A stretch of DNA of 20,000 nt from an uncultured virus (IMG/VR IMGVR_UViG_3300044621_002455) (taxonomy: Duplodnaviria; Heunggongvirae; Uroviricota; Caudoviricetes). The stretch lies in the IMG/VR virus record IMGVR_UViG_3300044621_002455; one strand, written 5' to 3'. Below the pieces are notes generated by a model. It ran no database searches and was not told the origin of the DNA. It worked only from the letters and a program-made list of their open reading frames with translations. Shown piece by piece: positions 3,145 to 19,608 of the stretch; the first letter of the stretch is position 1, and every line of letters begins with the position of its first letter. The position numbers and the translations under genes are program-made.

Positions 3145-3828
3145 TCAAACCGCTACGACGGGCGCTTGCTGACGCATGTATTGTACGCGGCATTTGCAAT
3201 TGCTCATGCAGGCACAGCGTTGCCCTGGCATTGGCAAACTACCAATAGGCACCGCTCCCCTCGCTGCAAAATTCACGCAATCACTACAGTGCTTTGCCTG
3301 TGGGTCCAAGATGCGACGCATCAGACTGTAGCCTTGTCGTTCTTGACGAATTGCGGAACCCTCCCAGTAAGAACCTCGCACAGCCTGAGAATACATGCCG
3401 ATACGAGCAAGAGCCATGGGAGCAGAAATGCTCCCAGCCAGAAGATCGCGAGCAAAACTCTCCAAGTAACGGTATTCCGCACGAAGGCGTTGGCCGATGC
3501 GGCCCCATTCTGCAGCTTGCATCGAATCTCGTCCACCATTGCCAATGATTGCAGCTTGCGTGTGGGCAAGCTTAAGTGCTTCCCTTACGCTTCGCTGCCA
3601 TTGATCCAGCGTGATATCGCCGCTACTAAGCATGTTTGTAAGACGGCGTAACAAAGTACCAAGCTTGTTAATTCGACCATCGACCAAACTCTCAACGGCA
3701 GACTGGCTGAGAAATCGCCCGTTAGCTCCGCGATAACGGCCACTAACGGGATCGTAGTTCCATGAGGATTGATCCAGGCGAAGCTGAATGGTGGCTGCGA
3801 ATGTTGAGAGATCATTCAGGCTTTGCAT
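3145..3828 (-). CDS. Phage head morphogenesis / minor capsid protein (Mu gpF / SPP1 gp7-like)
   Basis: Directly downstream of the portal. C-terminal HCSDC...LPMPGQRCACMSNCKC Cys motif is typical of this family. Confidence 0.65.
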   Translation of the reverse strand: MQSLNDLSTFAATIQLRLDQSSWNYDPVSGRYRGANGRFLSQSAVESLVDGRINKLGTLLRRLTNMLSSGDITLDQWQRSVREALKLAHTQAAIIGNGGRDSMQAAEWGRIGQRLRAEYRYLESFARDLLAGSISAPMALARIGMYSQAVRGSYWEGSAIRQERQGYSLMRRILDPQAKHCSDCVNFAARGAVPIGSLPMPGQRCACMSNCKCRVQYMRQQAPVVAV

Positions 3829-5680
3829 CCTCTGCCTCCAGGATATCCTTGAAACGCTCAGGCGCTTCCTCTTTCCATTGGTTCAATGCAGCGTCAATGT
3901 CTTCTGGGTTGATCAAAGAGGCTTCGTCAACGTCAGAAAGCACAAGACCTTCCACTTTCATTGCCTCCATTGCATCTTGTTTCTTGAAATATTCAGCAGT
4001 TTCTTTCTTGCCCTTGAATGCTCCTTCCATTGAACCATGCTTGCGCTTGTAAAGAGCCTTGTATTTTTGCGTGACATAAGCCCCAGCAACTGCACTTGGC
4101 CACACCTTGAATTTTGCTTTTGCTGCTGCGATGGCCTGTTGATGCAGCTCCTTGTCCTTGAACTCAGCATCTTCCTTCTCTTCGCGCTTGTGCTCAAGAT
4201 CACCCGACAGATGAAGCGAAGCTGAGTCTTCTACTTCCCTGCTCCCGTCCATGGGAAGCGTGCCATTTTCTTCGTTCATTGGATCGCGGCCACCAGGAGG
4301 TACCGCCAGACCACCCCCTTTCTGAGTGGAACCACCCCCTCCTTGAGTGGGCAATTCTCGGACGACACTGGGATCGAGCGTAAGTTCCATGCTCCATTCA
4401 GAACCGCCGTAGCGGGCGTCTGCCACTTCCTTAGGACTCAATACTCCCAGTTGGATGTAACGGCCATCTACAGCCGCTACACGCGCCCTCACATCCGCCA
4501 TCTCGCGCTCATTAAGCTCGAACAATGGATTAAAAGCAATGCGCCACGACTCAGGCAATTCTCCTTTTGTGGGGCCTTCCTTGCTCAGCATGATGTATTC
4601 AAGCAGCTTCTTCATGGGCCGCTTGAAATTGACGCTTTGATAATCAGCAAGCATCTTGGCAAAGTCACGCTCTTCGCTGCGACCAGTGGAACCAAGACCA
4701 CTCGGGCTTTCGCCAAACAAAACAGTGTGAGGAATCTTGCTGGCGCCAATAATATCAACGCGCAGCTTTTCTAAGATTTCTCCAATGCCACCAAAGTTGC
4801 GACTGATAAATTCAAGCTCTTCTTTCTCCGCATCAATCGCGTAGCCGCGATAAATGCTTTTGCTCATATCATTCACCTGTAGGCGATCACGAATGGAACT
4901 TTCTTTGCCAGCAGCAAGCATCGCTGCCAAGCCCCTCACTTTGTGAACAAAGATGTCAAACTCGGTGAGAAGCGTAGCCGCTGAATTTAATCCCGTCCAA
5001 TAATGCCTGAAGCTGTCATAAACAGTCTGCAAGCTGCTCATGCCCCATCCATAGTTCCTTTGCCGAATGCGATAAGGAAGCCAGTCCCCGTCAAAGCGAA
5101 GAATCCTATCTTTGTGAATGTAGGACAATTGTGGCTGGTTAATTAAATCTCCAGAGATGATCTGATAATAAGTGGCTTTTGAATAGTCGTAGAGGTTTTC
5201 TTCGTTGATAACGGGAGCAATTTGCCATCTATCCAAACATTCAATGTCTTCGATGCGACGTATATTACGTTTATCGACAGGCATGTAAGCGGGACGCCCA
5301 TCGTCAATAAAAAGAAGTAGACAAGCACCCCCATAAAGGCGGGAGTTTTTCGCTGCGAGGTTGAGATGTTCAAGGATGTATAGGTCTTCAATTACTTGTT
5401 CAATGCCTTGTACTTCCTCGGCCCTAACGCCCTCTCCGCCAAACAATACTTTGAAGCCTTTTCGCGTGGCTTGGTCAGCATAGATGTCAACAATACGACG
5501 AGGGAGCCATTCACCATAAAGATTTTCTAGTTCTTCTTGAGCCAAGAAAACAGTGGCCGTAGTTTTAGTATATTGCGCCTTGTCACGGCCAGTGCCCATG
5601 CCAATGAGCACGTTCTGAAGACCATCAGCCCTTACGCCGCCGCTTCCGGCGTGACCAAGATCAACTGCTTCGTTTTCCAT
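3812..5680 (-). CDS. Phage portal protein (DUF1073 / HI1409 family) with C-terminal extension
   Basis: 622 aa. LENLY..WL.RRIVD..ADQATRKGF, SRLYGGA, IHKDRILRF, GWG.S.LQ, IPHTVLFGESPSGL.STG and F.PL.E..E.E.A match DUF1073 portals. Confidence 0.85.
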   Translation of the reverse strand: MENEAVDLGHAGSGGVRADGLQNVLIGMGTGRDKAQYTKTTATVFLAQEELENLYGEWLPRRIVDIYADQATRKGFKVLFGGEGVRAEEVQGIEQVIEDLYILEHLNLAAKNSRLYGGACLLLFIDDGRPAYMPVDKRNIRRIEDIECLDRWQIAPVINEENLYDYSKATYYQIISGDLINQPQLSYIHKDRILRFDGDWLPYRIRQRNYGWGMSSLQTVYDSFRHYWTGLNSAATLLTEFDIFVHKVRGLAAMLAAGKESSIRDRLQVNDMSKSIYRGYAIDAEKEELEFISRNFGGIGEILEKLRVDIIGASKIPHTVLFGESPSGLGSTGRSEERDFAKMLADYQSVNFKRPMKKLLEYIMLSKEGPTKGELPESWRIAFNPLFELNEREMADVRARVAAVDGRYIQLGVLSPKEVADARYGGSEWSMELTLDPSVVRELPTQGGGGSTQKGGGLAVPPGGRDPMNEENGTLPMDGSREVEDSASLHLSGDLEHKREEKEDAEFKDKELHQQAIAAAKAKFKVWPSAVAGAYVTQKYKALYKRKHGSMEGAFKGKKETAEYFKKQDAMEAMKVEGLVLSDVDEASLINPEDIDAALNQWKEEAPERFKDILEAEDAKPE

Positions 5681-5746
5681 AAGCTTTATTTATGGCCATG
5701 ATGTGTTGCTTTTATTCTAGAACCTGGCTACATTGGCACGTAGCTT

Positions 5747-6262
5747 ATGCGCACTATGGCCAGCTTTGGCATCGTTTTCCATTTCAGCGAGGAAGACAAG
5801 GAGCTTGTACGGTCAGAAGCCGTACGCAGGCAGCGTTTCAACGAGGAAAAAGGCCTAAAAGGACGCAATGGAGGGCCGGAACAGGGGGAGAAAGCTCTTT
5901 TTATTCACAAGCTTGGTGCTGCTGGCGAACTGGCAGTGGCAGATTTTCTTAATCTTCGTCAGTTTCTCTATCAAGAAACAGAAGCAAAACGAGGATCTTG
6001 CGATCTTCCGCCAGACATCGACGTGAAAACCCGTTCTCGTCATGACTACGATCTCATCTGCCAATTAGACGAGAAGCCTGGAAAAACCTTAGTGTTGGTT
6101 ACGATACAGAACAAAATCACTCTTCTCCATGGTTGGATGAAAAGTGAAGATGCAATGCAGGAACAATGGAAAAAAGATCCTGCTCGCGGAAGACCAGCTT
6201 ATTTCGTTCCACAATCTGCTTTGTTTCCTCTCATAGACCTACGCCATGCTGAAATGTTCTGA
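5747..6262 (+). CDS. Hypothetical phage protein, PD-(D/E)xK nuclease-like
   Basis: GAAGELAVADFL...D...DIDVKT pattern resembles a restriction-endonuclease-like fold. Overlaps the TerL start. Confidence 0.5.
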   Translation: MRTMASFGIVFHFSEEDKELVRSEAVRRQRFNEEKGLKGRNGGPEQGEKALFIHKLGAAGELAVADFLNLRQFLYQETEAKRGSCDLPPDIDVKTRSRHDYDLICQLDEKPGKTLVLVTIQNKITLLHGWMKSEDAMQEQWKKDPARGRPAYFVPQSALFPLIDLRHAEMF

Positions 6263-7613
6263 CTTTTCTAAGCACGCTCTCAAGCTCGATCTCTACCCTC
6301 AGCAGGCGAAGATTCTCGATAATTTCTTCCAGCCCGATAAGAGCCATGCAGTGTGGGCTCTTGGACGACGATCAGGCAAAACTGTCATGGCGGCAGTGGC
6401 ATGCGTCTATATGTGCTTCGTCTTGGAGGATGAATATCGTCGGCGCGTGAGAAAAGGCGAGAAATGGTACATCGTCACCGTCGCCAACAGTCAGGATCAG
6501 GCTCGCATTGCTCTCAACAACATCCGTCAGCTCATTCTTGACAGTCCCTTCGCTCAAGAAATTGTCCGAGAAACTGCCGACATCATTGAACTGAGCAACA
6601 ATTGCGTGTTCAAAGCTATTCCCACTTCAGGCCGCGCTGCTCGTGGCTTGGCTTGCGCTGGAGCAGTATTTGACGAGCTTGCTTTTGCCACTGAAGGCGA
6701 TGCAAATAGTGGAGGCCGTGGCATCTACGACGCACTATCTCCCGCCATCGCTCAGTTTGGAGGCAAAGGACGCATCCTTGAACTCTCTTCTCCATGGTTA
6801 ACGGACGGCATCTTCTATCAGCATTTCAAAGAAGCAAGCTCTGGCCGCTTCCCTTTCATGCAGGCTATCAACCTCCCAACGTGGGAGATGAACCCAAGCA
6901 TTTCGCAAGAGTTTCTTGACACAGAGAGACAGCGCGATCCAGAGAAGTTTAAAGTGGAATATGGGGCGCAATTCGCGAGCAATCTTTCAGCCCTTGTTGC
7001 AAGCGATGTTGTTGATGCCTGTGTTGATGACCGTCGAGCGGCTCTACCACCCCGCCCTGAATTCCAAGGCGCTTACGTTCTTGCCCTTGACCCCGCCCGT
7101 GGTGGCGTTGGCCGTGACGACTACACTGCTTGCATTGTTCACTATGAGAACGGCACGCTAGTCGTAGACAAATTTCATTCGTTCGCTGCTGATTTTGAAA
7201 TCAATGGAAGGATGGAAGTAAATATCAATGCAGTGGAAGATTGGATTAAAGAGCAGCATCGTCTATATATTTTTGACACCATCGTGATGGACCAGTTCAA
7301 CAGTGCTGGCACCATTCAAAGCCTTGCCAGCGACCTTCCCATCACGGAACTCACTTGGACCGTCAGCTCCAAAATGAAAGCATTCAGCAAGATGCGAGAG
7401 TTGTTTAATGCAGGACAGATCAACGTCTATCGCCATGAGAAAGCAATCATGCAATTAAAGAATCTCACTGTCATCTATAAGCCCAGTGGACAATGGAGTG
7501 TGACTGGTGGCAAGGCTTCGGGAATTGACGACTTGGCATTTGCAATGGCAGGTGCAATTCTTGCCGCTAGTAAAGACGACGACATTGGCTGGATTGAGAG
7601 CTTGATTTCATAG
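6246..7613 (+). CDS. terL: Terminase large subunit
   Basis: Walker A GRRSGKT, Walker B AVFDELAF, coupling motif LSSP, PTWEMNP, EYGAQF; RNase H-like nuclease acidic residues LALDPA, MDQFN, DDLAFA. Confidence 0.92.
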   Translation: MLKCSDFSKHALKLDLYPQQAKILDNFFQPDKSHAVWALGRRSGKTVMAAVACVYMCFVLEDEYRRRVRKGEKWYIVTVANSQDQARIALNNIRQLILDSPFAQEIVRETADIIELSNNCVFKAIPTSGRAARGLACAGAVFDELAFATEGDANSGGRGIYDALSPAIAQFGGKGRILELSSPWLTDGIFYQHFKEASSGRFPFMQAINLPTWEMNPSISQEFLDTERQRDPEKFKVEYGAQFASNLSALVASDVVDACVDDRRAALPPRPEFQGAYVLALDPARGGVGRDDYTACIVHYENGTLVVDKFHSFAADFEINGRMEVNINAVEDWIKEQHRLYIFDTIVMDQFNSAGTIQSLASDLPITELTWTVSSKMKAFSKMRELFNAGQINVYRHEKAIMQLKNLTVIYKPSGQWSVTGGKASGIDDLAFAMAGAILAASKDDDIGWIESLIS

Positions 7614-7948: not shown

Positions 7949-8133
7949 GCTTTCGCGAAGCACGCTGGCCAGCGTTGGATCAACAAGGAACAATGGTTTC
8001 AGGCGCCATTGTTTCGTAAAGCGATGTTGCACATCGCTGCCCTGTGCAACAGGGCCTTCAGGGGAAGAGGGGAGTAGGCCCACCTGCTCTGAAATGCTGT
8101 ACAAGGCGGATTGAAGCCCCGCTCAGCGCCCTC
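7949..8133 (+). ncRNA. Candidate multi-hairpin structured RNA
   Basis: At least seven consecutive stem-loops and no convincing ORF. Follows an extended -10 box. Confidence 0.5.
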
Positions 8134-8170
8134 AACTTCCTCTAGCCTCCCCTTTGCTACACTGATGGTA

Positions 8171-8220
8171 CGTTCGGCCTTCGGGCTGCATAATCACTTG
8201 AGGATGGAACGGGCCTCAAG
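8171..8220 (+). promoter_or_regulatory. Glutamine riboswitch, Downstream-peptide (glutamine-II)-like
   Basis: CGTTC...GGAACG P1 stem; internal hairpin ggcc-ttcg-ggct; pseudoknot cttgagg (8197-8203) / cctcaag (8214-8220). Upstream -10-like TACACT; downstream DUF4278-like peptide. Confidence 0.75.
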
Positions 8221-8236
8221 GTTATGGAGAACCATC

Positions 8237-8356
8237 ATGAACCCACTCGCCCTCATCAAGCAGCAGCTTGAGAAAGCAGCTCGTCTGCGTGAAGCACAAA
8301 TGGCTTCGCTGGTCTATCGCGGCGTCGCTTATGTGCCCAAGCCTCATTGGTTTTGA
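8237..8356 (+). CDS. DUF4278-like small protein (39 aa)
   Basis: MNPLALIKQQLEKAARLREAQMASLVYRGVAYVPKPHWF contains the L.YRGV.Y signature; GGAGA RBS at 8226. Confidence 0.75.
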   Translation: MNPLALIKQQLEKAARLREAQMASLVYRGVAYVPKPHWF

Positions 8357-9495: not shown

Positions 9496-10230
9496 TCAAG
9501 CCCTGCCGTAGGAAGGCAAATTAGTGTTGGCCGCCTCAAAGAACGCAGGCATCCGGCTCCGTTGCGTTTCTGCCAGGCCATCTGCTTTGCCCTTCTCAAA
9601 CAAGCTGTCACTCTGCTTGAGCCAGAAATCTTTGTTCAACCATTTGTTCTCGCTGGCACCCAGCGCATCAAATGCCCACAATGCAGTGGCGCGACGCAGC
9701 TTATTCAAGCTCTGACCAGCATCCTCCCCTAGTTCCTTAGCCACAAGACTATGCACGCCAACGTGGGTAATCTCGTCACGGCTAATATCAGCAGCCACAG
9801 TGCGAATGCCCATATCGCCATTAAAGCGGAAGAACGGCAGCACAACAAAGAAGATGCTGCGCTCCAAAATGGCAGCTTTCAAAATGGGGTGGGCAGGATG
9901 CTCCTGCCATGCATTCAGAATGCCTTCCACTTCCTTCTCGGCCTTTTCATCGGCACCATGGGCAGCAACAATGTAGTTGAGGGCCTGATCATGACGCTGT
10001 TCATCTTCCTGGTTATGACGAAGGGCTTCCACAACGCCAGGCGTGGAAGGCAGATCACGCTCTAGCCCCTGCTCCAGAAAGTCCTTCACAGGCAGTTCCA
10101 AATGACGCAGTGCCAGCAGCTTACCAAGAGTGGCCTCGCTGCCTTCCTGCACAACGCCCTTGTCCACGGCAACGGCCTGCCAAGGCCGTTTTTTAGCAAT
10201 CATCGACAAATAAGGACTCTTCGTCGTCAT
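9496..10230 (-). CDS. nrdB: Ribonucleotide reductase class I beta subunit (short ferritin-like, cyanophage type)
   Basis: LELPV, DEQRH, LERSIFF and DEITH di-metal ligands; immediately downstream of the alpha subunit. Confidence 0.8.
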   Translation of the reverse strand: MTTKSPYLSMIAKKRPWQAVAVDKGVVQEGSEATLGKLLALRHLELPVKDFLEQGLERDLPSTPGVVEALRHNQEDEQRHDQALNYIVAAHGADEKAEKEVEGILNAWQEHPAHPILKAAILERSIFFVVLPFFRFNGDMGIRTVAADISRDEITHVGVHSLVAKELGEDAGQSLNKLRRATALWAFDALGASENKWLNKDFWLKQSDSLFEKGKADGLAETQRSRMPAFFEAANTNLPSYGRA

Positions 10231-10263
10231 GGTCTTACTATCATTCAGTGGGTGTTGAGGAGA

Positions 10264-10290
10264 AAGGGGCCTTTGGGCCCCTTCTTTTTT
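10264..10290. terminator. Hairpin / intrinsic terminator between the RNR genes
   Basis: aaggggcc-tttg-ggcccctt followed by ctttttt. Confidence 0.55.
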
Positions 10291-10291
10291 G

Positions 10292-11737
10292 TCATTCAGC
10301 GCAGGCAGCGCAGTATCCAGCCTCTACGGAACAAGACGCAGAATCCTGCTCGGTCTCTTCATTGAGACCAAACATGCTCTTAAAGTCGTCGTCCAACGCA
10401 GCATATGCATCATCCTTGCGCTGAGTGTCAGGCAGGACTTGCAAGCTGTAATAGAGGCTCGTCTGAGGAGAGTCTAGCCAATCCTTCAGGAACACTTCGT
10501 CATAATTCACAATGTCTGACCATGAATTAAACGAATAACCATGGAAGAGGCCAGTGCGTTGGTACAACTGAACTAGTCCATTGGCAGTCTTGAAGAAAGC
10601 TTCCCAGCCCACTTCCGCAGCCGTTTCCACTTCGCCATAGTCAAAGCTCTCCACGCCAAACGTGCCGCTATCGCGATCTACAGTCCGAGCAATGGGAGGA
10701 GCAATTTCAGGCGTGGTGGTGAAGCCCCGCGTGTCTAAGTAGCGATAGGAGCACGATGCAGTGGGAGCAATGCAAAAAGCACGTTCCATTCCATGCTCAC
10801 GAGCAACTTCCGCAGCCCTCTGAATGCCTTGGTCAATTTGCCAGACGGCTTCTCCAGAAATGGTGTTCTTCCAGAAATCATTCCAGCCACGAGCATCTTC
10901 TGCAAGGAATGCTTCCAATGCATTGCCAAAATCTTCATAGCTAATGCCATGGATGGCAAGGAAATTAGCTAGGCCCAACACGCCCAAGCCAATTTGCTTG
11001 TCAATGACAGGAGGCAGATATTCGCCAGTGTCGCCAACGCCAGTACCAGGATGCAGCTCACAAAGCTGCATCATGCCCTCGACAAATGCTCCTTGAATGT
11101 TATCCAGCGTGCATGCGCCCAAATTAACGTGCTGAAGAAGACAAGTGCCACGATGCGGAAGATATACCTCTAAACAGACATTGGCCCTGATGCGTTCTCC
11201 ACGATTGTTATATCGGATTTTGTTGAGCCAGAGATCGCCAGAAGAGATGGCACGAAGACAGGCATTAATCAGTTCAGGAGACGATGCAGAAAGAAAATTG
11301 TCATCAACGTTTAAACAACGCTTCACCCAAGGAAGCTCACTACGTGATGCACTAACAAATTCAATGGCATCAGGGCTTGTATAGTCAAGATGCAGCACTA
11401 CGGCACCATTCTTGTATAAACCACCCCTACGCAAGATTTCATTAAGCGTGGAATAAATCTTCCCAAAACTTACTGGCCCGCTTGCCACGAGGCCTTTGCC
11501 ATTTTCAGCGCCCCTTTCGCGCAGAGAAGATAAATGAACAGCGACCCCCGCACCATTGCGCAAACCATGGCTAACAAACCGCCAAGACGCTTCAATGCCA
11601 TCTTCGCCCTCCATTGAATCTTCTACGTTGAACACCGTGCAACTCACAGGCAGGCGTCCATCAGGACTACCCAGCCAATCTTGAACGCGCCCCGTGCGGG
11701 CAATTGGCTCACATTTTGCCTTTTCCTTCAGCTTCAT
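10292..11737 (-). CDS. nrdA: Ribonucleotide reductase class I alpha subunit (minimal, no ATP cone)
   Basis: PVSCTV, NVCLE catalytic N-x-C-x-E, CLLQHVNL, IAPTASCS, SLYY tyrosine dyad and C-terminal CAAC. Start taken at ATG 11737. Confidence 0.9.
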   Translation of the reverse strand: MKLKEKAKCEPIARTGRVQDWLGSPDGRLPVSCTVFNVEDSMEGEDGIEASWRFVSHGLRNGAGVAVHLSSLRERGAENGKGLVASGPVSFGKIYSTLNEILRRGGLYKNGAVVLHLDYTSPDAIEFVSASRSELPWVKRCLNVDDNFLSASSPELINACLRAISSGDLWLNKIRYNNRGERIRANVCLEVYLPHRGTCLLQHVNLGACTLDNIQGAFVEGMMQLCELHPGTGVGDTGEYLPPVIDKQIGLGVLGLANFLAIHGISYEDFGNALEAFLAEDARGWNDFWKNTISGEAVWQIDQGIQRAAEVAREHGMERAFCIAPTASCSYRYLDTRGFTTTPEIAPPIARTVDRDSGTFGVESFDYGEVETAAEVGWEAFFKTANGLVQLYQRTGLFHGYSFNSWSDIVNYDEVFLKDWLDSPQTSLYYSLQVLPDTQRKDDAYAALDDDFKSMFGLNEETEQDSASCSVEAGYCAACAE

Positions 11738-11822
11738 AAGACGACAAAAGGGGACCATGGTCCCCCGAGAATCAACAGAAGCAGGCTAGCGCAGGGAAGC
11801 GATGGTGAAGAGGAAATTAAGC

Positions 11823-13212: not shown

Positions 13213-13468
13213 ACTAGGCATAAATACTTAGGCGAAAAAAAAGGGGATGAAAAATGGCGCCACTTTTCGGGGAGGTATGCCCACATGCGCCTTGCCGCAT
13301 AAGCCGGTTACTGCTCTATGCGCCTACACGCATAAGCGCATAACAGTACGGTTGTACCATCAGAAAAACTAATGTTACGAAATGTTACGATTGCGGGAAT
13401 CTGGCGAAATTTCGACTAGATTTGGGCATGAGACGGGCGACCGTCTCGCCGCCCCTCGACAACCTGCC

Positions 13469-13621
13469 ATGACCTCCCCCTCGATCGCCTCCCTGTTCGC
13501 CGCTCGCCTTCGCGAGCTCGAGGAGCAGGATCGCCAGAGCCAGGCGAAAACAGCCAAAACACTAGCTAGCGTCAAGGCTACGATCGCCGAGCTCGAGAGC
13601 CTAGAGATCCCTCTAGACTGA
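13469..13621 (+). CDS. Small coiled-coil protein (50 aa)
   Basis: MTSPSIASLFAARLRELEEQDRQSQAKTAKTLASVKATIAELESLEIPLD; preceded by a GTTACGAAAT motif and followed by a terminator. Confidence 0.6.
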   Translation: MTSPSIASLFAARLRELEEQDRQSQAKTAKTLASVKATIAELESLEIPLD

Positions 13622-13626
13622 TAGCT

Positions 13627-13653
13627 AAAAGCCGACCTTAGAGGTCGGCTTTT
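13627..13653. terminator. Bidirectional intrinsic terminator
   Basis: aaaagccgacct-tag-aggtcggctttt, between convergent units. Confidence 0.8.
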
Positions 13654-13820
13654 CTATTCTTGCCATTATGACGCTATGCGCATAGGAGATATTCTCTCGA
13701 TCAGCAGAGAAGCGAGACAGGAGCGAGAGGGGAGAGCATGAGAAGGCCTCTCAACCTAAGGAGGCTGAGAGGCTAGGGAGAGAGGCCAGGAGAGGCCTCT
13801 GAGAAGGAGAAGGAGGGAGG

Positions 13821-14066
13821 TTATGGGAGGGGGAGGCGAAGCTCCTTGAGGCGCTCCTGATTTGAGCGAGAGCGAAGGAGGAGAAGCCAGAGGCCGGGGA
13901 GGCGAAGGGAGAGGAGGGAGAGCCAGCCAGAGCGGCGAGACCAGGAGGAGAAGCGAGAGAAGAGGGGGAGGCGAGGGGGAGGAGAGAGGAGGAGGAGAAA
14001 GGAGCGGCGAGAGAGGGGGAGACAGCGAGGGAGAGGAGAGGAGGGGAGACAGCGAGGGGAGAGCAT
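13821..14066 (-). CDS. Hypothetical S/L/P/R-rich protein
   Basis: ATG ORF with the same MLSP start as neighbouring island ORFs; low complexity. Confidence 0.4.
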   Translation of the reverse strand: MLSPRCLPSSPLPRCLPLSRRSFLLLLSPPPRLPLFSRFSSWSRRSGWLSLLSLRLPGLWLLLLRSRSNQERLKELRLPLP

Positions 14067-14080
14067 GAGAGGGAGCGCTC

Positions 14081-14302
14081 CTAGTGACGATCAGAGAGGA
14101 GCCAGACAGAGGAGGGAGGGAGGGGAGGCTCTCCCCTGAGGGAGCGCTCTCGAGCGAGAGCAGAGGCTCGAGCCTCAGAGGCGAGGCGCTCGCAGTAGGA
14201 GCGCAAGACGGAGGAGAGGAGAGGAGAGAGCTCGCCAGAGGAGACAGAGCCGAGGAGAGCGCCAGAGGAGGAGCGAACAGAGCGAAGGGGAGCCGAGGTC
14301 AT
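14081..14302 (-). CDS. Hypothetical protein (73 aa)
   Basis: Preceded by the island's palindrome plus CTTCTCTTCTC-ATG leader. Confidence 0.6.
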   Translation of the reverse strand: MTSAPLRSVRSSSGALLGSVSSGELSPLLSSVLRSYCERLASEARASALARERSLRGEPPLPPSSVWLLSDRH

Positions 14303-14323
14303 GAGAAGAGAAGAGAAAGGAGC

Positions 14324-14343
14324 GGGAGGCCTTGAGGCCTCCC
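14324..14343. repeat. Intergenic palindrome, copy 1 (GGGAGGCCTTGAGGCCTCCC)
   Basis: One-mismatch copy of the palindrome at 15826 and 16835. Confidence 0.85.
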
Positions 14344-14367
14344 TAGGAGGAGAAAGGCGAGAGCTTC

Positions 14368-15486
14368 TCAGGAGCGAGAGAAGGCGAAGGAGCCACCATC
14401 GGGGAGAGCTTGCCAGGAGCCAGAGCCGAGAGGGAGAGCGAAGCGAGAGGCGCTCTCAGGCTTCGCTCCTCGCGAGCGCTTGAGGCGAAGGAGCACAGCG
14501 AGGCCAGAGAAGCCAGGAGCGGGAGAGGGATCGAGCATCCTTAAATCATTCGCGTCGCCATTGATGCACTGCAGGAGCGCCTCTCGGCCGTGCTGATCGC
14601 GAAGGAGGAGCGAGACAGGGAGAGGCTCCCCCTTAGGGAGGAGGATTGGCACGGCAACAGAGAAGCCGGCCTCTGCTGCGTCAATTGCTCGAGAGGAGCA
14701 GCGCTCCTGATCAGCAGCGAAGGAGGCCGTCACGTGCACGCCGGCCTCGCGAGCGGCGAGGAGGCCAGCAGCGCCGAACAGGGGAGATTTCGCATAATCG
14801 TAGAGAGAAAGGAAGGGGACAGAGGCGAGCGCCTCGGGGATAGTGCGGATGCCAGAGGGGATAGGAGCGCCGAACAGCTCAGAGAGGAGAGCGGCCTCCT
14901 CTGTTGAGAGGCGAGCGGCGAGCCAGGCCTCCTGCCATGGGAGCTCCTGGGTTCCGTTGAGCCTCAGAGCGAAGGGGAGGCCGAGGCGGCGAGCCTTGCG
15001 ATAGGAGAGGCCTGCAGCCCATAGGAGGCAGCGAGCGAAGGCCTCACGATCGGCGAGAAAGGCGAGGGAGCGGCGAGAGCGGCAGAGCTGGACAGCAGTT
15101 GAGAGCCCCCCATGGCCAGAGAAGGCGAGGCAGAGATCCTCACAAGATGCCGTCTTAAAAGGGCAGGCATCGAACAGGAGAGCGCGAGCCGTGAGGCCTT
15201 CGCGATCGGCAAGCTCTCTCAAGCCAGGGAGCTCCCCTCTCACGGCAACAGAGCCAGGCAGAGAAGGAGACAGAGCGCGAGCCAGGGAGCGCGAGGGAGG
15301 GAGATGCAACAGAGCAGAGAAGGCGAGGCCGCTCCCCTTCGCGAGCTTCGCGTTTGAGCTCCCATAGGTGAGGAGAGAATCAAAGGAGAGGCCGAACCGA
15401 GCAAGGAAGGGGGAGAGATCCTCAGGAGGCCGAGGAGCGCGGCCGAGCTTAAGGGGAGCGGGAGGAGCCAGGAGAGCGGCAGGCAT
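14368..15486 (-). CDS. GP88-like phage protein (Cys-cluster, radical-SAM-like)
   Basis: SNAKLAK, CP.....C...CL..SGHG, LRLNGTQE, LYDYAK, GFSVAV, INGDANDLRMLDP and LRLK match the Gene product 88 family pattern. Confidence 0.7.
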   Translation of the reverse strand: MPAALLAPPAPLKLGRAPRPPEDLSPFLARFGLSFDSLLTYGSSNAKLAKGSGLAFSALLHLPPSRSLARALSPSLPGSVAVRGELPGLRELADREGLTARALLFDACPFKTASCEDLCLAFSGHGGLSTAVQLCRSRRSLAFLADREAFARCLLWAAGLSYRKARRLGLPFALRLNGTQELPWQEAWLAARLSTEEAALLSELFGAPIPSGIRTIPEALASVPFLSLYDYAKSPLFGAAGLLAAREAGVHVTASFAADQERCSSRAIDAAEAGFSVAVPILLPKGEPLPVSLLLRDQHGREALLQCINGDANDLRMLDPSPAPGFSGLAVLLRLKRSRGAKPESASRFALPLGSGSWQALPDGGSFAFSRS

Positions 15487-15549
15487 GATCAACAGAGAAG
15501 AGAGGGGACAGAGAGAAGGCCTCCCCCTTGAGAAGGAGAGGCCAGAGCC

Positions 15550-15795
15550 TCAGGAGAGGCGAGAGCGGCGATTGTCTCTCTGAGCGAGGCCGTCACCGAG
15601 AGCAGCGCCAGAGAGGAGGAGAGAAGTGACGGCAGAAGTGGAGAAGAGAATAAAGGGGAGAGCCAGGGGAGCGGCCTCCTTAGCAGAGGGAGCCTCAGAG
15701 GCCCATTTCGCGTAGGAGAAGGAGCAGAGGCCGAATAGGACAGAGCCGAGGCCGAGGAGGCCAGAGAAGGCGAAGGAGGAGAGAGGGGAGCGCAT
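15550..15795 (-). CDS. Small two-helix membrane protein (81 aa)
   Basis: ATG 15795 after the palindrome and CT leader; two hydrophobic segments. Confidence 0.6.
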   Translation of the reverse strand: MRSPLSSFAFSGLLGLGSVLFGLCSFSYAKWASEAPSAKEAAPLALPFILFSTSAVTSLLLSGAALGDGLAQRDNRRSRLS

Positions 15796-15825
15796 GAGAA
15801 GAGAAGCGAAGGAAGGGGAGGAGAA

Positions 15826-15847
15826 AGGGAGGCCTCGAGGCCTCCCT
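15826..15847. repeat. Intergenic 22-bp perfect palindrome, copy 2
   Basis: AGGGAGGCCTCGAGGCCTCCCT followed by AGG. Confidence 0.9.
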
Positions 15848-15856
15848 AGGAGGAGC

Positions 15857-16012
15857 TCAGAACCGAGCAACAGAGAGGGGGAAGGAGACGGAGCCTTGAG
15901 CGTGTCCACGCTCCTTATGGGCAGCAGAGAAGGAGGGGAAGGAAGGGAAGCCAGGGAGAGGCTCTCCCGAGCGTGCATCGATAATACGGAAGGAGACAGA
16001 GCGGCGAGCCAT
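15857..16012 (-). CDS. Hypothetical protein (51 aa)
   Basis: MARRSVSFRIIDARSGEPLPGFPSFPSFSAAH...; follows a TATTGT promoter and the CT leader. Confidence 0.6.
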   Translation of the reverse strand: MARRSVSFRIIDARSGEPLPGFPSFPSFSAAHKERGHAQGSVSFPLSVARF

Positions 16013-16104
16013 GAGAAGAGAAGCGAGAGAGCGAGGCGATCGCTCGCCTCTGAAGAGACAATAGAAAGGAAGGAGAGGGAGGCCAGAGCCTCCCCTCCCT
16101 TTTG

Positions 16105-16281
16105 TCACAATCCGTCACAATCGGGAAGGAGCTCCTCAAGGTCAGAGAGAAAGGCCTCGAGCGTGGCGGAGGGGAGCCACCTAGCGAGCTCCTCGAGCAC
16201 AAGAGGGAGGCCAGAGGAGGCGAGGCCGAGCTCCTCGGCTCGATCGAGGAGGAGAGCACGTTGATAGGAGGGGAGAGCCAC
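16105..16281 (-). CDS. Hypothetical acidic helical protein (58 aa), not in the ORF track
   Basis: GTG start overlapping the upstream TAG: MALPSYQRALLLDRAEELGLASSGLPLVLEELARWLPSATLEAFLSDLEELLPDCDGL. Confidence 0.6.
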   Translation of the reverse strand: MALPSYQRALLLDRAEELGLASSGLPLVLEELARWLPSATLEAFLSDLEELLPDCDGL

Positions 16282-16586
16282 TAGGAAGGAGAGCAGAGAT
16301 CAGCAGAGCAGACAGAGGGGGGAAGCCCAACAGAGAGCGGCACGCCATGGCGAAGGCGAAGGAGGGAGCGCCTCTCGAGGAGGAGCCTCTCGATCGCTTC
16401 ACCATCCCCAGAGAGGCGAGGGAGAAGGCGCTCGATCGTGGCGAGGCGCTTCTCCTCTGGCGAGAGCTCAGAGCGAGGAGGGAGCGAGAGCACGGCCTCG
16501 AGCTCAGAGGGGGAGAACTGGCGGCCCTCGCTCTCAACAGAGGCGAGGAGCGAGGCGAGCTCAGAGGGGGAGAGGGGGGAGAGCAT
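16281..16586 (-). CDS. Hypothetical protein (101 aa)
   Basis: ATG ORF tiling with neighbours; internal SPSEL repeats. Confidence 0.6.
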   Translation of the reverse strand: MLSPLSPSELASLLASVESEGRQFSPSELEAVLSLPPRSELSPEEKRLATIERLLPRLSGDGEAIERLLLERRSLLRLRHGVPLSVGLPPSVCSADLCSPS

Positions 16587-16595
16587 GGCAGAGCC

Positions 16596-16796
16596 TCAGG
16601 AGAGGGGAGAGAAGAGAAGGGAGAGAAGCTCCTCGAGAGCCTCCTCGAGCTCCTCACGATCAACAGCAGAGAGAGGAGCGGGAGAGGCGAGGCGCTCCTC
16701 GAGCTCGCGAGCGTAGAGAGCGGCCTCACGGCGAGAGGAGAAGGAGAAGCGAGGCCAGGAGAGATCAGAGGCGAGGAGCTCGTGAGAGGAGGCCAT
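16596..16796 (-). CDS. Hypothetical acidic protein (66 aa)
   Basis: ATG after the palindrome and CT leader; E-rich amphipathic helices. Confidence 0.6.
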   Translation of the reverse strand: MASSHELLASDLSWPRFSFSSRREAALYARELEERLASPAPLSAVDREELEEALEELLSLLFSPLS

Positions 16797-16834
16797 AGGA
16801 AGGAGAGCGAGAGAACAGAGAAAGGAAGGAGAGG

Positions 16835-16856
16835 AGGGAGGCCTCGAGGCCTCCCT
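16835..16856. repeat. Intergenic 22-bp perfect palindrome, copy 3
   Basis: AGGGAGGCCTCGAGGCCTCCCT followed by AGG. Confidence 0.9.
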
Positions 16857-16868
16857 AGGGGGAGAGCC

Positions 16869-17237
16869 TCAGAGGAGGCCGAGGCGAGCGGCTCGCTTGA
16901 GCAGAGCAGAGCGGGAGGCCTTCGCCAGAGAAGAGGAGCTCTCGCCAGCTTGAGCCAGAGCCTCGATCAACAGAGCGCGAGGAGAGGCCTCAGAGAGAGG
17001 CTCGGGCAGAGAAGCGGCGAGGCGCTCGAGGAGAGCAGCAACAGAGCGAAGGAAGGGAGCGAGGCGGCCTCGCTCCTGCCAGAGGCGAGAGGCGAGAGCA
17101 TGGCAGAGAGCCAGAGAGAACAGGAGAGCCTCGAGAGAGCGAGAGGCGATCGCCTGCCATGGCAGAGAAGAGAGCGCCTCGATCGCGTCAGACAGAGGAG
17201 GGAAGGAGGGGGATCTATGGGGGGAAGGAGCGAGCAT
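16869..17237 (-). CDS. Hypothetical helical protein (122 aa)
   Basis: ATG 17237 with CTTCTCTTCTC leader downstream of the TATTGT promoter at 17287-17292. Confidence 0.6.
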   Translation of the reverse strand: MLAPSPHRSPSFPPLSDAIEALSSLPWQAIASRSLEALLFSLALCHALASRLWQERGRLAPFLRSVAALLERLAASLPEPLSEASPRALLIEALAQAGESSSSLAKASRSALLKRAARLGLL

Positions 17238-17286
17238 GAGAAGAGAAGCGAGGGGACAGAGGCCAGGAGGAGCGGCCTCGATCGAG

Positions 17287-17347
17287 ACAATAAAGAGAAG
17301 AGGAGAGGAGGCCAGAGGCTCTCTGGCCCATTGAAATATTTCGTAAC
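17287..17347 (-). promoter_or_regulatory. Early-type promoter module: GTTACGAAAT - hairpin - TATTGT
   Basis: Similar architecture at 16058-16121, 18888-18938 and 19355-19403; only the TATTGT box is visible at 19987-19992 (window edge). Confidence 0.6.
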
Positions 17348-17408
17348 GTATGTGCCTATGCGCCTTGGCGCATAAAAGCATAGGCGGCCAAGCATGACTG
17401 GTTGCAAT

Positions 17409-17613
17409 ACGTATCAGTATCAACGAACTGGCATGATCAGTATCAACAACAGACTGCGCTTGTGATCATGATCATGATCAAACGGTGCTATCAGTACGTA
17501 TCAGGAATCAATGCCTGATAACGATCAGTATCAAGAATTGGGCCTGATCATGATACGTATCACGGCCGCCGCTGCTACGGTTCCGTATCAGTAGCGATAG
17601 TACAAATGTACTA
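17409..17613. repeat. ATCA (GTATCA / TGATCA) motif array
   Basis: 15 ATCA on the + strand in about 180 bp; palindromes TGATACGTATCA and TAGTACA-AA-TGTACTA. Confidence 0.85.
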
Positions 17614-17641
17614 GAAAAATGGCCTATTTAAGCGCTTCTAA

Positions 17642-17695
17642 TATACCGCATTTCAGCAAGTCCCTATACCGCCTTTTAGCAAGTCCCTATACCGC
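17642..17695. repeat. 23-bp-period tandem repeat
   Basis: AGCAAGTCCCTATACCGC at 17655 and 17678, plus a partial TATACCGC at 17642. Confidence 0.85.
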
Positions 17696-17716
17696 TTCCC
17701 ATCGTTTCCAAAATTT

Positions 17717-18174: not shown

Positions 18175-18395
18175 TGGTCGTAAGTGGCGAGAGGTTCTTC
18201 TTCGATGGAAAGGGCAAGTTGCTTGAGCTGGTCTAGAGCTGCTCTGATCACATATGCTCTACTCACGGAAGCTTCATCAAGAAGCTCATCAAGAGCGTGG
18301 ATTTCGTCATAGAGTTCTTCAATGGAAGAGAAAGTACGTGCAGCGTAGGGCACGCCATATTCATCTTCCGAGACAAAACTAACGGGAAAAGGCAT
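18171..18395 (-). CDS. Hypothetical acidic protein
   Basis: 74 aa; tiles in the operon. Confidence 0.7.
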   Translation of the reverse strand: MPFPVSFVSEDEYGVPYAARTFSSIEELYDEIHALDELLDEASVSRAYVIRAALDQLKQLALSIEEEPLATYDQ

Positions 18396-18397
18396 GA

Positions 18398-18610
18398 TCA
18401 GCCGTTAATGCAAGAGTTGAAGAATTGTTCTGCTTCCCACTTGTGGTCGAAGAGACCGTAGGAAGTGGTGTGGAGCTGGAATTCTGTGATGCGTTCCCAG
18501 CCATAGGCTTCCCACTTGCGGGAGCCATCAGCGCAGAGATAGGACTGCACGCCGTAGCCGCTGTGCTGAGCCTGGCGATCAGCTTCAAGCTTTTCGAGGT
18601 AGGAAGACAT
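18398..18610 (-). CDS. Hypothetical protein
   Basis: 70 aa; tiles in the operon. Confidence 0.7.
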   Translation of the reverse strand: MSSYLEKLEADRQAQHSGYGVQSYLCADGSRKWEAYGWERITEFQLHTTSYGLFDHKWEAEQFFNSCING

Positions 18611-18619
18611 GATTGGTTC

Positions 18620-18847
18620 TCAATAGTTGGTCTGAAAAGAGCTATGTCGCTTTGCCAGCGGAAGCTGCAGCGTGCCAATTGTCCAGCTCTGATATTCAGA
18701 AGTGGCGCCAGGCTTGCCGAAAACGAATGTTTCAACAAACACTTCATCATGCTTAGCGTCATAGCTATAAGCGCGGCAAACACCAGTGGCAAGGTGATGG
18801 GTTTTGAGGGTTTTGCCGTTTTTGAGGTCTTGCAGGAAGTCGGTCAT
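18620..18847 (-). CDS. Hypothetical protein
   Basis: 75 aa; first gene after the promoter module at 18888. Confidence 0.65.
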   Translation of the reverse strand: MTDFLQDLKNGKTLKTHHLATGVCRAYSYDAKHDEVFVETFVFGKPGATSEYQSWTIGTLQLPLAKRHSSFQTNY

Positions 18848-18932
18848 TGTTGGTTAATCGAAAGGGAGGCTCGCGCCTCATGAAAGAACAATAAAAGAGA
18901 AGCGGGGCGTTTCCGCCCCTTTGCAACAATGC

Positions 18933-19313
18933 TTAACAGAAGGCCGTGCGTCCGTTGGAATAGGCCCACCACTGCTTGGTACCTTCGCTGGCTTCCTGCT
19001 CCCATGCTGCCCACTTCTCAGGCACAGGCTCAGAAACAATGCGGGTGCCAGCGGGCACCTTAATGGGGCCAGAGAGCGTGCTGATGGTCCATTGATCCAT
19101 CACAGGGCCATTGATGTACCAGCTCTGGCAAACGTGCAGCAGGCCAATCAGCTCAAGGGAGCGAGGATCCTCGGCGCCAGCTCTCTGCTGGGTGGGGAAA
19201 GGCTGGTGCCAGTTCGGCACGGTGACAGTGATCTTGATGCGATCCAGCTCTTCAAATTTGGTCCAGTAGCCAGGGCCGGTGAGCTGCTCGACGGAGTGGT
19301 TGATGATTGCCAC
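18933..19313 (-). CDS. Hypothetical protein (126 aa, GTG start)
   Basis: A GTG at 19313 lies after the TATTGT box at 19355-19360 and a pyrimidine leader. Confidence 0.65.
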   Translation of the reverse strand: MAIINHSVEQLTGPGYWTKFEELDRIKITVTVPNWHQPFPTQQRAGAEDPRSLELIGLLHVCQSWYINGPVMDQWTISTLSGPIKVPAGTRIVSEPVPEKWAAWEQEASEGTKQWWAYSNGRTAFC

Positions 19314-19407
19314 GGAAGGAAAGCGAAGAAAGGGCGTCGCCGCCCATGCAGAGAACAATACAGCATGACGGGGCCTGTGACGAGGCCCGTTACATTTCGT
19401 AATATTC

Positions 19408-19608
19408 TTAATAGAGGCTCTTTATTGAGAATGGCCCAAGCCTGCCAATGCGTAGGGCGGTTTCCTTGACAAATTGCTGGCTATTGGTTTTTGTATTTTT
19501 GATTTTATGCAAGCCAGTTTCCGTTATCTTCACCACTGCATATTCGCCCCTCCATTGTTGAAAGCCTGAATCATAAAGGTCAACGAGGGTTCCAATGGGG
19601 AAAGGCAT
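19408..19608 (-). CDS. Small hypothetical protein (SH3/KOW-like beta pattern)
   Basis: FPIGTLVDL...GEYAVVKI pattern. Confidence 0.6.
   Translation of the reverse strand: MPFPIGTLVDLYDSGFQQWRGEYAVVKITETGLHKIKNTKTNSQQFVKETALRIGRLGPFSIKSLY

Follow-up and report, generated by a model that had tools for sequence, protein, structure and literature searches.

A GP88-family protein of a freshwater cyanophage appears shaped by the local nucleotide vocabulary of its cassette

Results

The window, by which we mean the whole 20,000-nucleotide stretch analysed here (uncultured virus record IMGVR_UViG_3300044621_002455 in IMG/VR), is part of a tailed phage genome from lake water, that of an S-CBS4-like cyanosiphovirus. 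Its four bases stand at about 25 % each outside a single island of about 3.6 kb at 13690..17325, an operon-like compositional cassette that we call the B-type island and whose sense strand is the minus strand. Within it the plus strand holds 41.4 % G, 27.5 % A, 22.2 % C and 9.0 % T, so that the sense strand reads C 41, T 27, G 22 and A 9 %; the cassette is delimited by its composition, by synteny and equal bias in relatives, and by bridged borders. Inside it, at 14368..15486 on the minus strand, lies the gene that concerns us most, an ATG-initiated GP88-family gene of 372 amino acids, which exists as a sequence-only reading of the window had first described it. The stretch is present in at least nine metagenome runs, and contigs from four other runs cross both borders with 0 differences; these contigs are independent, and the island is no assembly artefact.

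Profile searches, homologues, substitution ratios, a six-frame scan and an AlphaFold2 model all bear on the identity of this gene. A hidden Markov model search matched residues 106-320 of the protein to Pfam GP88 (PF17338; E 2.1e-8, 34.8 bits against a cut-off of 24.4) over profile positions 36-209 of 230, which bears out the family assignment of the sequence-only reading; the same family was matched in 20/20 proteins of a sister clade described below, and the 372-residue protein also matched phrog_1617 (E 2.8e-21). A word-indexed search returned 53 homologues and a profile search of 1.84 billion representatives 2872 family members at E<=0.001, while a scan of a genome-contig collection gave no relative of the protein. 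The earlier argument that the island is real coding DNA holds as well: the ratio of nonsynonymous to synonymous divergence (dN/dS) for the gene is 0.13-0.33 against seven related phages, and when all six frames were scanned, with differences summed over 12 relatives, the lowest ratio of nonsynonymous to synonymous differences (pN/pS, 0.24-0.35) belonged to the annotated minus frame along the whole gene. By these sequence comparisons the open reading frame (ORF) at 14368-15486 is a genuine GP88-family gene under purifying selection and a functional member. The Cys triad, R-L-N-G-T, Y-D-Y-x-K, T-x-S, G-D-x-x-D-x-R and L-R-x-K, family-wide columns that are 82-100 % conserved among 109 distant members, are all kept. 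That part of the literature which our search could reach held no paper on PF17338.

The bias of the island is written in short words. Observed/expected ratios across it are 0.29 for AC, 0.27 for GT and 0.40 for TA, and the avoidance is visible at every codon junction of 14 biased genes: over junctions 1-2, 2-3 and 3-1 the ratio is 0.54, 0.32 and 0.16 for AC and 0.26, 0.37 and 0.40 for GT, TA lies at 0.39-0.52 over the three, and AG, GA, CT and TC rise to 1.2-2.5. In the GP88 sense strand A occupies 9.7, 16.1 and 6.2 % of codon positions 1, 2 and 3, against 25, 32 and 18 % in the backbone genes of the window. Synonymous choice follows suit, with GAT used 12 times and GAC twice even though C is the commonest base, CGC 21 times against CGT once, GGC 22 times against GGT once, CTC for 45 of the 65 leucines and GAG for 17 of the 18 glutamates; conserved GP88 residues, too, are written with the least offending codon (GAT not GAC, CGC not CGT, GGC not GGT, AAG not AAA). 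The spacers of the cassette are biased as strongly as its codons. These observations show that the bias acts on nucleotide words, not on codons and not just on single bases. Complementary steps behave alike, which points to a duplex or symmetric rule, and beyond this symmetric step bias there is a strong asymmetry toward pyrimidines on the sense strand. The sequence-only reading had expected the gene to help identify an avoided motif; the avoided words can indeed be read, and what they make up is a dinucleotide vocabulary rather than any single motif. In such DNA one expects open frames to be long on either strand, because stop codons need T or A. A 342-amino-acid plus-strand frame at 16347-17375 was considered as a gene and rejected, as its frame (+0) has a pN/pS of 0.86-1.55 and is not coding.

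How far the vocabulary has reached into the protein was judged against the rest of the family. The consensus motifs that the sequence-only reading gave for it, RLNGTSD, YDYTK and DLRFLDP, proved correct at 52-100 % per column in 109 distant GP88 members, which are 109 of the 118 members P0086-P0203 (200-450 amino acids): R100 L86 N97 G82 T93 S91 D98; Y97 D96 Y99 T90 K100 for YDYTK; and D100 L52 R95 F72 L59 D91 P60. The window copy reads RLNGTQE, YDYAK and DLRMLDP at these places, and the biased clade as a whole has Q180, E181, A/G/S232 and M317. In a maximum-likelihood tree of 76 proteins, rooted on 13 distant members, the 37 biased proteins form one clade, with a clade 'O' of 26 proteins as its sister; the clade tests leave out the fragments P0037, P0039, P0040, P0042, P0047 and P0048 and the partial or fused proteins P0063, P0068 and P0071-P0073. 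Threonine plus valine make up 3-6 % in 37/37 biased proteins and 8-19 % in 39/39 others, and leucine, serine, phenylalanine and proline together 36-46 % in 37/37 against 19-30 % in 39/39. On this phylogeny the skewed composition is the derived state of one clade.

For the direction of change we counted L, S, P, A, R, G, F, C and W, whose codons can be free of A and GT, as favoured and the rest as disfavoured. Clade-consensus changes from O1 to the biased clade (B) run from disfavoured to favoured 23 times and in reverse 6 times (p 0.002), and those from O2 to B 20 and 9 times (13 against 1 at a threshold of 0.6), whereas a control comparison of two unbiased clades gave 7 against 7. The consensus residue has changed in 23/49 disfavoured columns against 29/140 favoured ones (odds ratio 3.4, p 0.0007). 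The shift sits where the family is free to vary: from O to B the disfavoured share falls from 43.4 to 24.8 % in 119 variable columns and only from 30.7 to 26.2 % in 133 columns conserved in O (>=0.7). Across the variable columns serine rises from 7.2 to 18.1 %, leucine from 9.1 to 17.7 % and glutamate from 3.6 to 9.3 %, and threonine falls from 7.3 to 1.6 %, valine from 5.4 to 1.7 %, isoleucine from 5.6 to 2.1 % and asparagine from 2.7 to 0.3 %; glutamate gains despite the A in its codon, and GAG belongs to the favoured vocabulary. Relative to the sister clade and the wider family, then, the biased clade has lost Thr, Val, Ile, Asn, Gln and some Asp and gained Ser, Leu, Glu and Phe. Columns at least 90 % conserved in the outgroup are unchanged in 51/57 cases, the six changes being I>L, D>Q, D>H, G>A, R>L and R>S, and most conserved motif residues are retained (the three invariant cysteines, RLNGT, YDYxK, TAS, GDxxDxR, KRSRG). 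The proposal that the bias drives amino-acid replacement is thus upheld as a directional excess, while its extension to conserved residues is not, as conserved columns are little changed. These alignments show, at the level of sequence, a nucleotide bias that has shifted the composition of the GP88 protein, overwhelmingly at positions that the family lets vary.

The exchanges themselves match expectation in part. Ile goes to Leu in 63 % of cases, Val to Leu and Ile in 29 and 15 %, Thr to Ser, Leu or Ala, Tyr to Phe in 35 % and Asp to Glu in a modest 16 %, so that the anticipated Thr>Ala, Asp>Glu and Ile/Val>Leu occur; K>R (1 %, with 84 % of lysines retained) and N>S (4 %), which had also been anticipated, are not seen. 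Nor do the rare dinucleotides cluster at indispensable residues, as had been proposed: counting codons that, with the next base, hold AC, GT or TA, we find 14/102 at conserved residues (shared with the outgroup consensus at >=0.7) against 30/270 elsewhere (Fisher p 0.48). The same holds for codons that contain A (31/102 against 69/270, p 0.36), and the test for rare dinucleotides is also negative within the biased clade's own invariant columns. Some of the residues named as indispensable turn out to vary among the 10 B rows sampled, where K111 of CPFKT is A in 50, S in 30 and K in 20 % and T112 is S in 80 and T in 20 %, and N309 of INGDAND is D in 90 %.

Genes of the sister clade have a setting of their own. 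They lie in islands of 2-3 kb with 63-73 % G+C (GC), A-poor and with C exceeding G, in phages of 45-53 % GC, and these O-type islands differ from the B type in their steps, with GA/TC at about 0.5 and TG at 1.5-2.0. They occupy the same locus in relatives (contigs L013 at 4000-6400, L019 at 3600-6400 and L023 at 3600-6400) and lie at 30.5-33 kb in the complete genome G003, 42-44.5 kb in G005 and 64-66 kb in G006. The earlier proposal to align with homologues from unbiased genomes succeeded in part: the directional shift is seen, and the comparison clade itself sits in an atypical island. The five complete genomes, of 68-75 kb and about 50 % GC, contain exactly one island apiece, and the backbone genes of the window are unbiased, so the bias is not genome-wide. 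Both island types lie between endonuclease VII/ribonucleotide reductase and the homologue of gene w17872; the window backbone is nearer to an O-type phage (77 % nucleotide identity) than to a B-type one (about 70 %), and the window island aligns only to the B type. A shared locus and this discordance between backbone and island argue that the bias is not positional. The B clade reaches down to 59 % protein identity with its composition unchanged, and synonymous difference in GP88 plateaus at 0.42-0.47, against 0.63-0.84 in backbone genes of the same pairs, with the codon bias kept. From these comparisons we infer that the bias is long-lived and stationary, and that it belongs to the cassette lineage rather than to the genome or the chromosomal position. 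Elsewhere in the complete genomes, 500-base windows rich in purines or pyrimidines were considered and set aside as mild A- or T-rich stretches, not B-type, and a blastn search with the island against 50,697 phage records gave no match. GT and AC steps run at about 0.55-0.8 throughout the phages G002-G006. Four segments of G004 (54727-55902, 57858-58352, 6105-6431 and 15624-16292), among them tail-fibre and tail-fibre-assembly genes, occur in both complete B-type genomes and in none of the three O-type ones; with two genomes against three, island type may track host range.

Besides GP88 the cassette holds small minus-strand ORFs, which are likewise under purifying selection and for none of which a Pfam, PHROG or PADLOC family was found. 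Its first gene, at 16869..17237, encodes 122 amino acids (pN/pS 0.12-0.57 in seven comparisons, frame -0 best) and gave no usable Atlas match. Two frames follow at 16596..16796 (66 amino acids, dN/dS 0.32-0.53 in three comparisons) and 16281..16586 (101 amino acids, 0.18-0.45 in three comparisons); over 16250-16760 frame -0 and the antisense frame +1, with which it shares wobble positions, are the two best, +1 being nominally lower in 2/3 windows. A 51-amino-acid frame at 15857..16012 is weakly supported, its protein being identical in L002 (pS 0.12) and absent from most relatives, and one of 81 amino acids at 15550..15795 has two hydrophobic stretches and a pN/pS of 0.23-0.73. Downstream of GP88 come frames of 73 amino acids at 14081..14302 (dN/dS 0.25-0.37) and 81 amino acids at 13821..14066 (0.40-0.76 in six comparisons and identical in L002, the seventh). 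Both of these small ORFs lie within 13735-14363, 627 bases in place of which contigs from 3/4 other runs carry the same 28 letters, so that the gene content of the cassette varies between co-occurring phages.

Three spacers share a unit made of a stop codon, a hairpin GGGAGGCC-N4-GGCCTCCC, a CU-rich leader that lacks a Shine-Dalgarno sequence, and an ATG. The hairpin copies are on the minus strand at 14324..14344 (found in both the direct and the inverted repeat families and called terminator-like), 15826..15847 (a 22-nucleotide inverted repeat, 100 %) and 16835..16856 (an inverted repeat). A bidirectional terminator-like hairpin at 13627..13653 marks the downstream end of the cassette, some 40 bases from the point where the bias stops, and at the upstream end the bias starts about 30 bases downstream of an operator-like palindrome, ATGCGCCTTGGCGCATAA, at 17356..17375. 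Two more palindrome copies lie at 13285..13335, upstream of a small convergent plus-strand ORF at 13382-13621 that has a weak capH-like (helix-turn-helix) match (E 0.0039). The near-palindromic 18-mer ATGCGCCTTGSCGCATAA has four matches in the window at up to three mismatches, where 0.02 are expected, and stands on both sides of the cassette, each time upstream of a transcription unit; it is probably an operator. The biased stretch, running from below the palindrome to the terminator, resembles one transcription unit. Just upstream of the cassette, at 17400..17565, is a dense array of TGATAC, TGATCA and GATCATGATCATGATCA repeats that could be origin iterons or the binding array of a regulator, and at 17640-17700, between this array and the next gene, AGCAAGTCCCTATACCGC occurs twice in direct orientation, the copies being about 30 bases apart.

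The AlphaFold2 model of GP88 is confident, with a predicted local distance difference test score (pLDDT) of 85.7 and a predicted template modelling score (pTM) of 0.87. Foldseek found no match to it in the PDB at E<=0.001, and a sequence-profile search of the PDB gave only rows at E>1 (up to 10). VIA-align against 48,161 chains returned 19 rows at Z>=5, of which 18 are radical S-adenosylmethionine (radical-SAM) enzymes (Z 5.1-6.6, 158-206 residues aligned), though at Z<8 a match may reflect merely a common arrangement. Members of that superfamily have a partial triosephosphate isomerase (TIM) barrel and a 4Fe-4S cluster. GP88 may have such a barrel, near whose start would lie its cysteine triad, C108, C115 and C119, invariant across the GP88 family. 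It does not have the canonical CX3CX2C motif of the superfamily, its spacing being Cx6Cx3C, and Pfam Radical_SAM was matched neither by the window protein (E up to 0.1) nor by 20/20 relatives (E up to 1). From the model GP88 probably has a radical-SAM-like partial barrel with a non-canonical Cx6Cx3C triad; that it may be a radical-SAM-like Fe-S enzyme we offer as a lead and not as membership of the superfamily.

The rest of the window is ordinary phage DNA. Gene-family searches place a portal gene at 3812-5680 (minus), the large terminase (TerL) at 6246-7613 (plus) and a class Ia ribonucleotide reductase (RNR) at 9496-11758 (minus), and phosphoesterase and endonuclease VII genes are also present. 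The nearest isolate is Synechococcus phage S-CBS4, a cyanosiphovirus of 69.4 kb, whose TerL and portal are 76 and 70 % identical to those of the window and whose gene order (RNR, endonuclease VII, phosphoesterase, TerL, portal) matches; it differs in that a GP88 homologue was not found in it and that such an island is absent from the 36 of 69 kb inspected. The nearest record, G001, gave no match. At 8168-8220 (plus) a glutamine-II riboswitch aptamer (RF01704) is matched over its full length with 35.3 bits, above the gathering score of 33; it falls within the ORF at 8111-8356, between the terminase and phosphoesterase genes; we take such a riboswitch to be consistent with a phage of picocyanobacteria. 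To the right of the island, ORFs at 18379-18792 (minus) and 18921-19469 (plus) have dN/dS of about 0.9-1.6 against relatives and are probably mis-called frames, or non-genes as listed. G004 carries a thymidylate-synthase-like gene, a deoxycytidine triphosphate deaminase gene, two glycosyltransferase genes and one SAM-methyltransferase gene (L095 4668-5381 and 6425-6994; L093 6364-8787), which could be ordinary nucleotide metabolism or a route to DNA-base modification, the latter relevant to the idea of a T-poor template strand.

Discussion

Taken as a whole, the data are best read as a real GP88 gene whose protein composition has been pulled by the vocabulary of its cassette, under a force that is a property of the cassette lineage and is, we think with fair though far from full confidence, selection on nucleic acid. 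Such selection would act on the transcript or the duplex itself rather than on the proteins, and would restrict the whole transcribed stretch, codons and spacers together, to a C/T-rich, A-poor sense strand, avoiding the duplex steps AC/GT and TA in favour of AG/CT and GA/TC. As to the agent, our favoured guess would be evasion of a host factor that reads short words containing A, AC/GU or UA. Selection for unstructured mRNA was considered and rejected: GP88 mRNA folds at -39.1 kcal per 120 nucleotides against -35.7 when shuffled, and the island as a whole at -35.3 against -27.1. There is thus more structure than composition would predict, and more than in backbone genes (-29 to -33).

Several points weigh against this account and should be set beside it. 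The disfavoured residues that remain are no likelier to sit at conserved columns than favoured ones (0.33 against 0.43), and the corresponding odds ratio, 0.67, is closer to 1 than the 0.28-0.55 of outgroup proteins. The rare dinucleotides show no concentration at conserved columns either. Some fixed changes run counter to the bias (F317>M, T/S313>N, S180>Q and, in YDY and relative to the sister clade, E230>D), and two bias-compliant states, E181 and a residue other than Thr at 232, are already present in that clade. Disfavoured residue types are generally more variable in the GP88 family, as those outgroup odds ratios of 0.28-0.55 indicate, so part of their loss is ordinary turnover, and since the sister clade itself lies in GC-rich, A-poor islands it does not provide a control of normal composition. 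The low synonymous plateau is expected from extreme codon bias whether selection or mutation bias maintains it, and the fold matches of GP88 are middling (Z<8), with neither the Pfam family nor the canonical motif of radical-SAM enzymes matched.

The most serious competitor is a local mutation bias that writes the cassette, for instance by transcription-coupled loss of A and G from the sense strand, with the protein following where it is unconstrained. Much of what we see would fit: the biased stretch coincides with the inferred transcription unit, between a point about 30 bases below the palindrome and the terminator; spacers are biased like codons; replacements are concentrated at unconstrained columns; and the main shift from O to B on the sense strand is from G to T (G from 0.315 to 0.253, T from 0.177 to 0.241). 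Transcription-linked damage, however, predicts sense strands rich in G+T and not C-rich ones, whereas the cassette is C-rich on its sense strand; AC and GT being depleted symmetrically, and AG/CT and GA/TC enriched, at every junction is no simple spectrum of base substitutions; O-type cassettes, which share the locus and have near backbones, do not acquire the B-type bias; and GAT is preferred to GAC although C is the commonest base. We consider a mutation bias unlikely, if well worth keeping in mind, and rate selection on the cassette nucleic acid appreciably above a mutation bias linked to the cassette. Far less probable is that the composition merely records ancestry, the cassette having come from a replicon or virus written this way throughout its genome. 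That the island type is discordant with the backbone, that many homologues lie on contigs of 3.6-4.9 kb and that gene content varies within the cassette could all be taken to speak for such a donor. Yet every contig with enough flank has phage DNA of normal composition on both sides, the island is embedded in 5/5 complete genomes, no other source was found in the genome-contig or phage collections, island divergence among B-type phages resembles backbone divergence, and there is no amelioration across a clade that reaches down to 59 % identity.

Least probable of all, and in our view largely refuted, is that the vocabulary removes restriction sites or CRISPR protospacer-adjacent motifs (such as GTN) from DNA that needs to survive first. 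The phages do avoid sites: the 16 AC/GT hexamer palindromes total 36-79 where about 260-280 are expected per genome (five genomes, G002-G006), a 3.6- to 7-fold depletion outside the islands, with the other 48 hexamer palindromes near expectation, and the island itself has 101 GT plus AC steps against about 316 at the backbone rate. But sites that the rest of the genome avoids are not depleted in the island. Palindromes avoided in the backbone abound in the window island (CTCGAG 14 against 0 outside, GAGCTC 15 against 0, CGATCG 9 against 0) and in that of G004 (CTCGAG 22 against 4, CGATCG 9 against 2); these are the two B-type islands in which the enrichment was checked, and the island of the B genome G002 has no such excess. 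The 101 GT/AC steps that remain are themselves awkward for avoidance, which also leaves the strand asymmetry unexplained, and in the complete O-type genome G003, which has terminal repeats, the island locus is at 30.5-33 of 68.5 kb, mid-genome.

To return to selection on nucleic acid, we would speculate, as a long shot, that the cassette is a 'stealth operon', whose small vocabulary (CTC, CCT, TCT, GAG, AGG and the like) would keep a host nuclease or sensor that reads short words with A, AC/GU or UA from acting on its DNA or mRNA, the GC-rich O cassette, whose step preferences are opposite (GA/TC 0.5, TG 1.5-2.0), being a second dialect for other hosts. Proteins such as GP88 would then be collateral, bent within the limits of their function, and could serve as a ruler for the strength and target of the pressure. 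Whatever the agent, an effect known for whole genomes is seen here within one cassette of an otherwise ordinary 70-kb phage genome, and since a sister clade and a large family act as built-in controls it can be measured column by column, with the favoured and avoided words readable at codon junctions. The force is local and heritable, bears on the nucleic acid of freshwater cyanophages that form a widespread group, and is strong enough that three quarters of threonine and two thirds of valine are gone at free positions. Identifying the agent, for which a nuclease, a DNA modification, a polymerase or a mode of translation without a Shine-Dalgarno sequence are candidates, could expose a new layer of phage-host conflict or of cyanobacterial gene expression.

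Composition-driven amino-acid change is well known at the scale of genomes; that genomic GC content shapes protein composition was reportedly described by Sueoka in 1961 and by Singer and Hickey in 2000. GP88 resembles those cases in that amino-acid frequencies shift chiefly at unconstrained positions and conserved sites are spared. It differs in that the bias is local, confined to a single 3.6-kb cassette while the 70-kb genome has 50 % GC, is strand-specific, is exerted on dinucleotide steps instead of GC content and travels with the cassette; the sources that our literature search could reach in part held no publication on a local, strand-specific cassette bias at the level of dinucleotides. 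As a compact block in one orientation, with small genes and regulatory sites of its own, the cassette recalls the early, first-entering regions of T5 and T7, although its locus is not terminal in the complete genome G003, and unlike restriction-site avoidance in phages it carries many palindromes which its genome otherwise shuns. Set against Pfam GP88 and phrog_1617, which comprise phage proteins without an assigned function, the window protein keeps the invariant Cys triad and the RLNGT, YDYxK, TAS, GDxxDxR and LRxK columns. Within the family it belongs to a longer, phage-carried subfamily of about 370 amino acids with N- and C-terminal extensions, and its clade stands apart from the rest by a derived composition, with 3-6 % threonine plus valine against 8-19 %.

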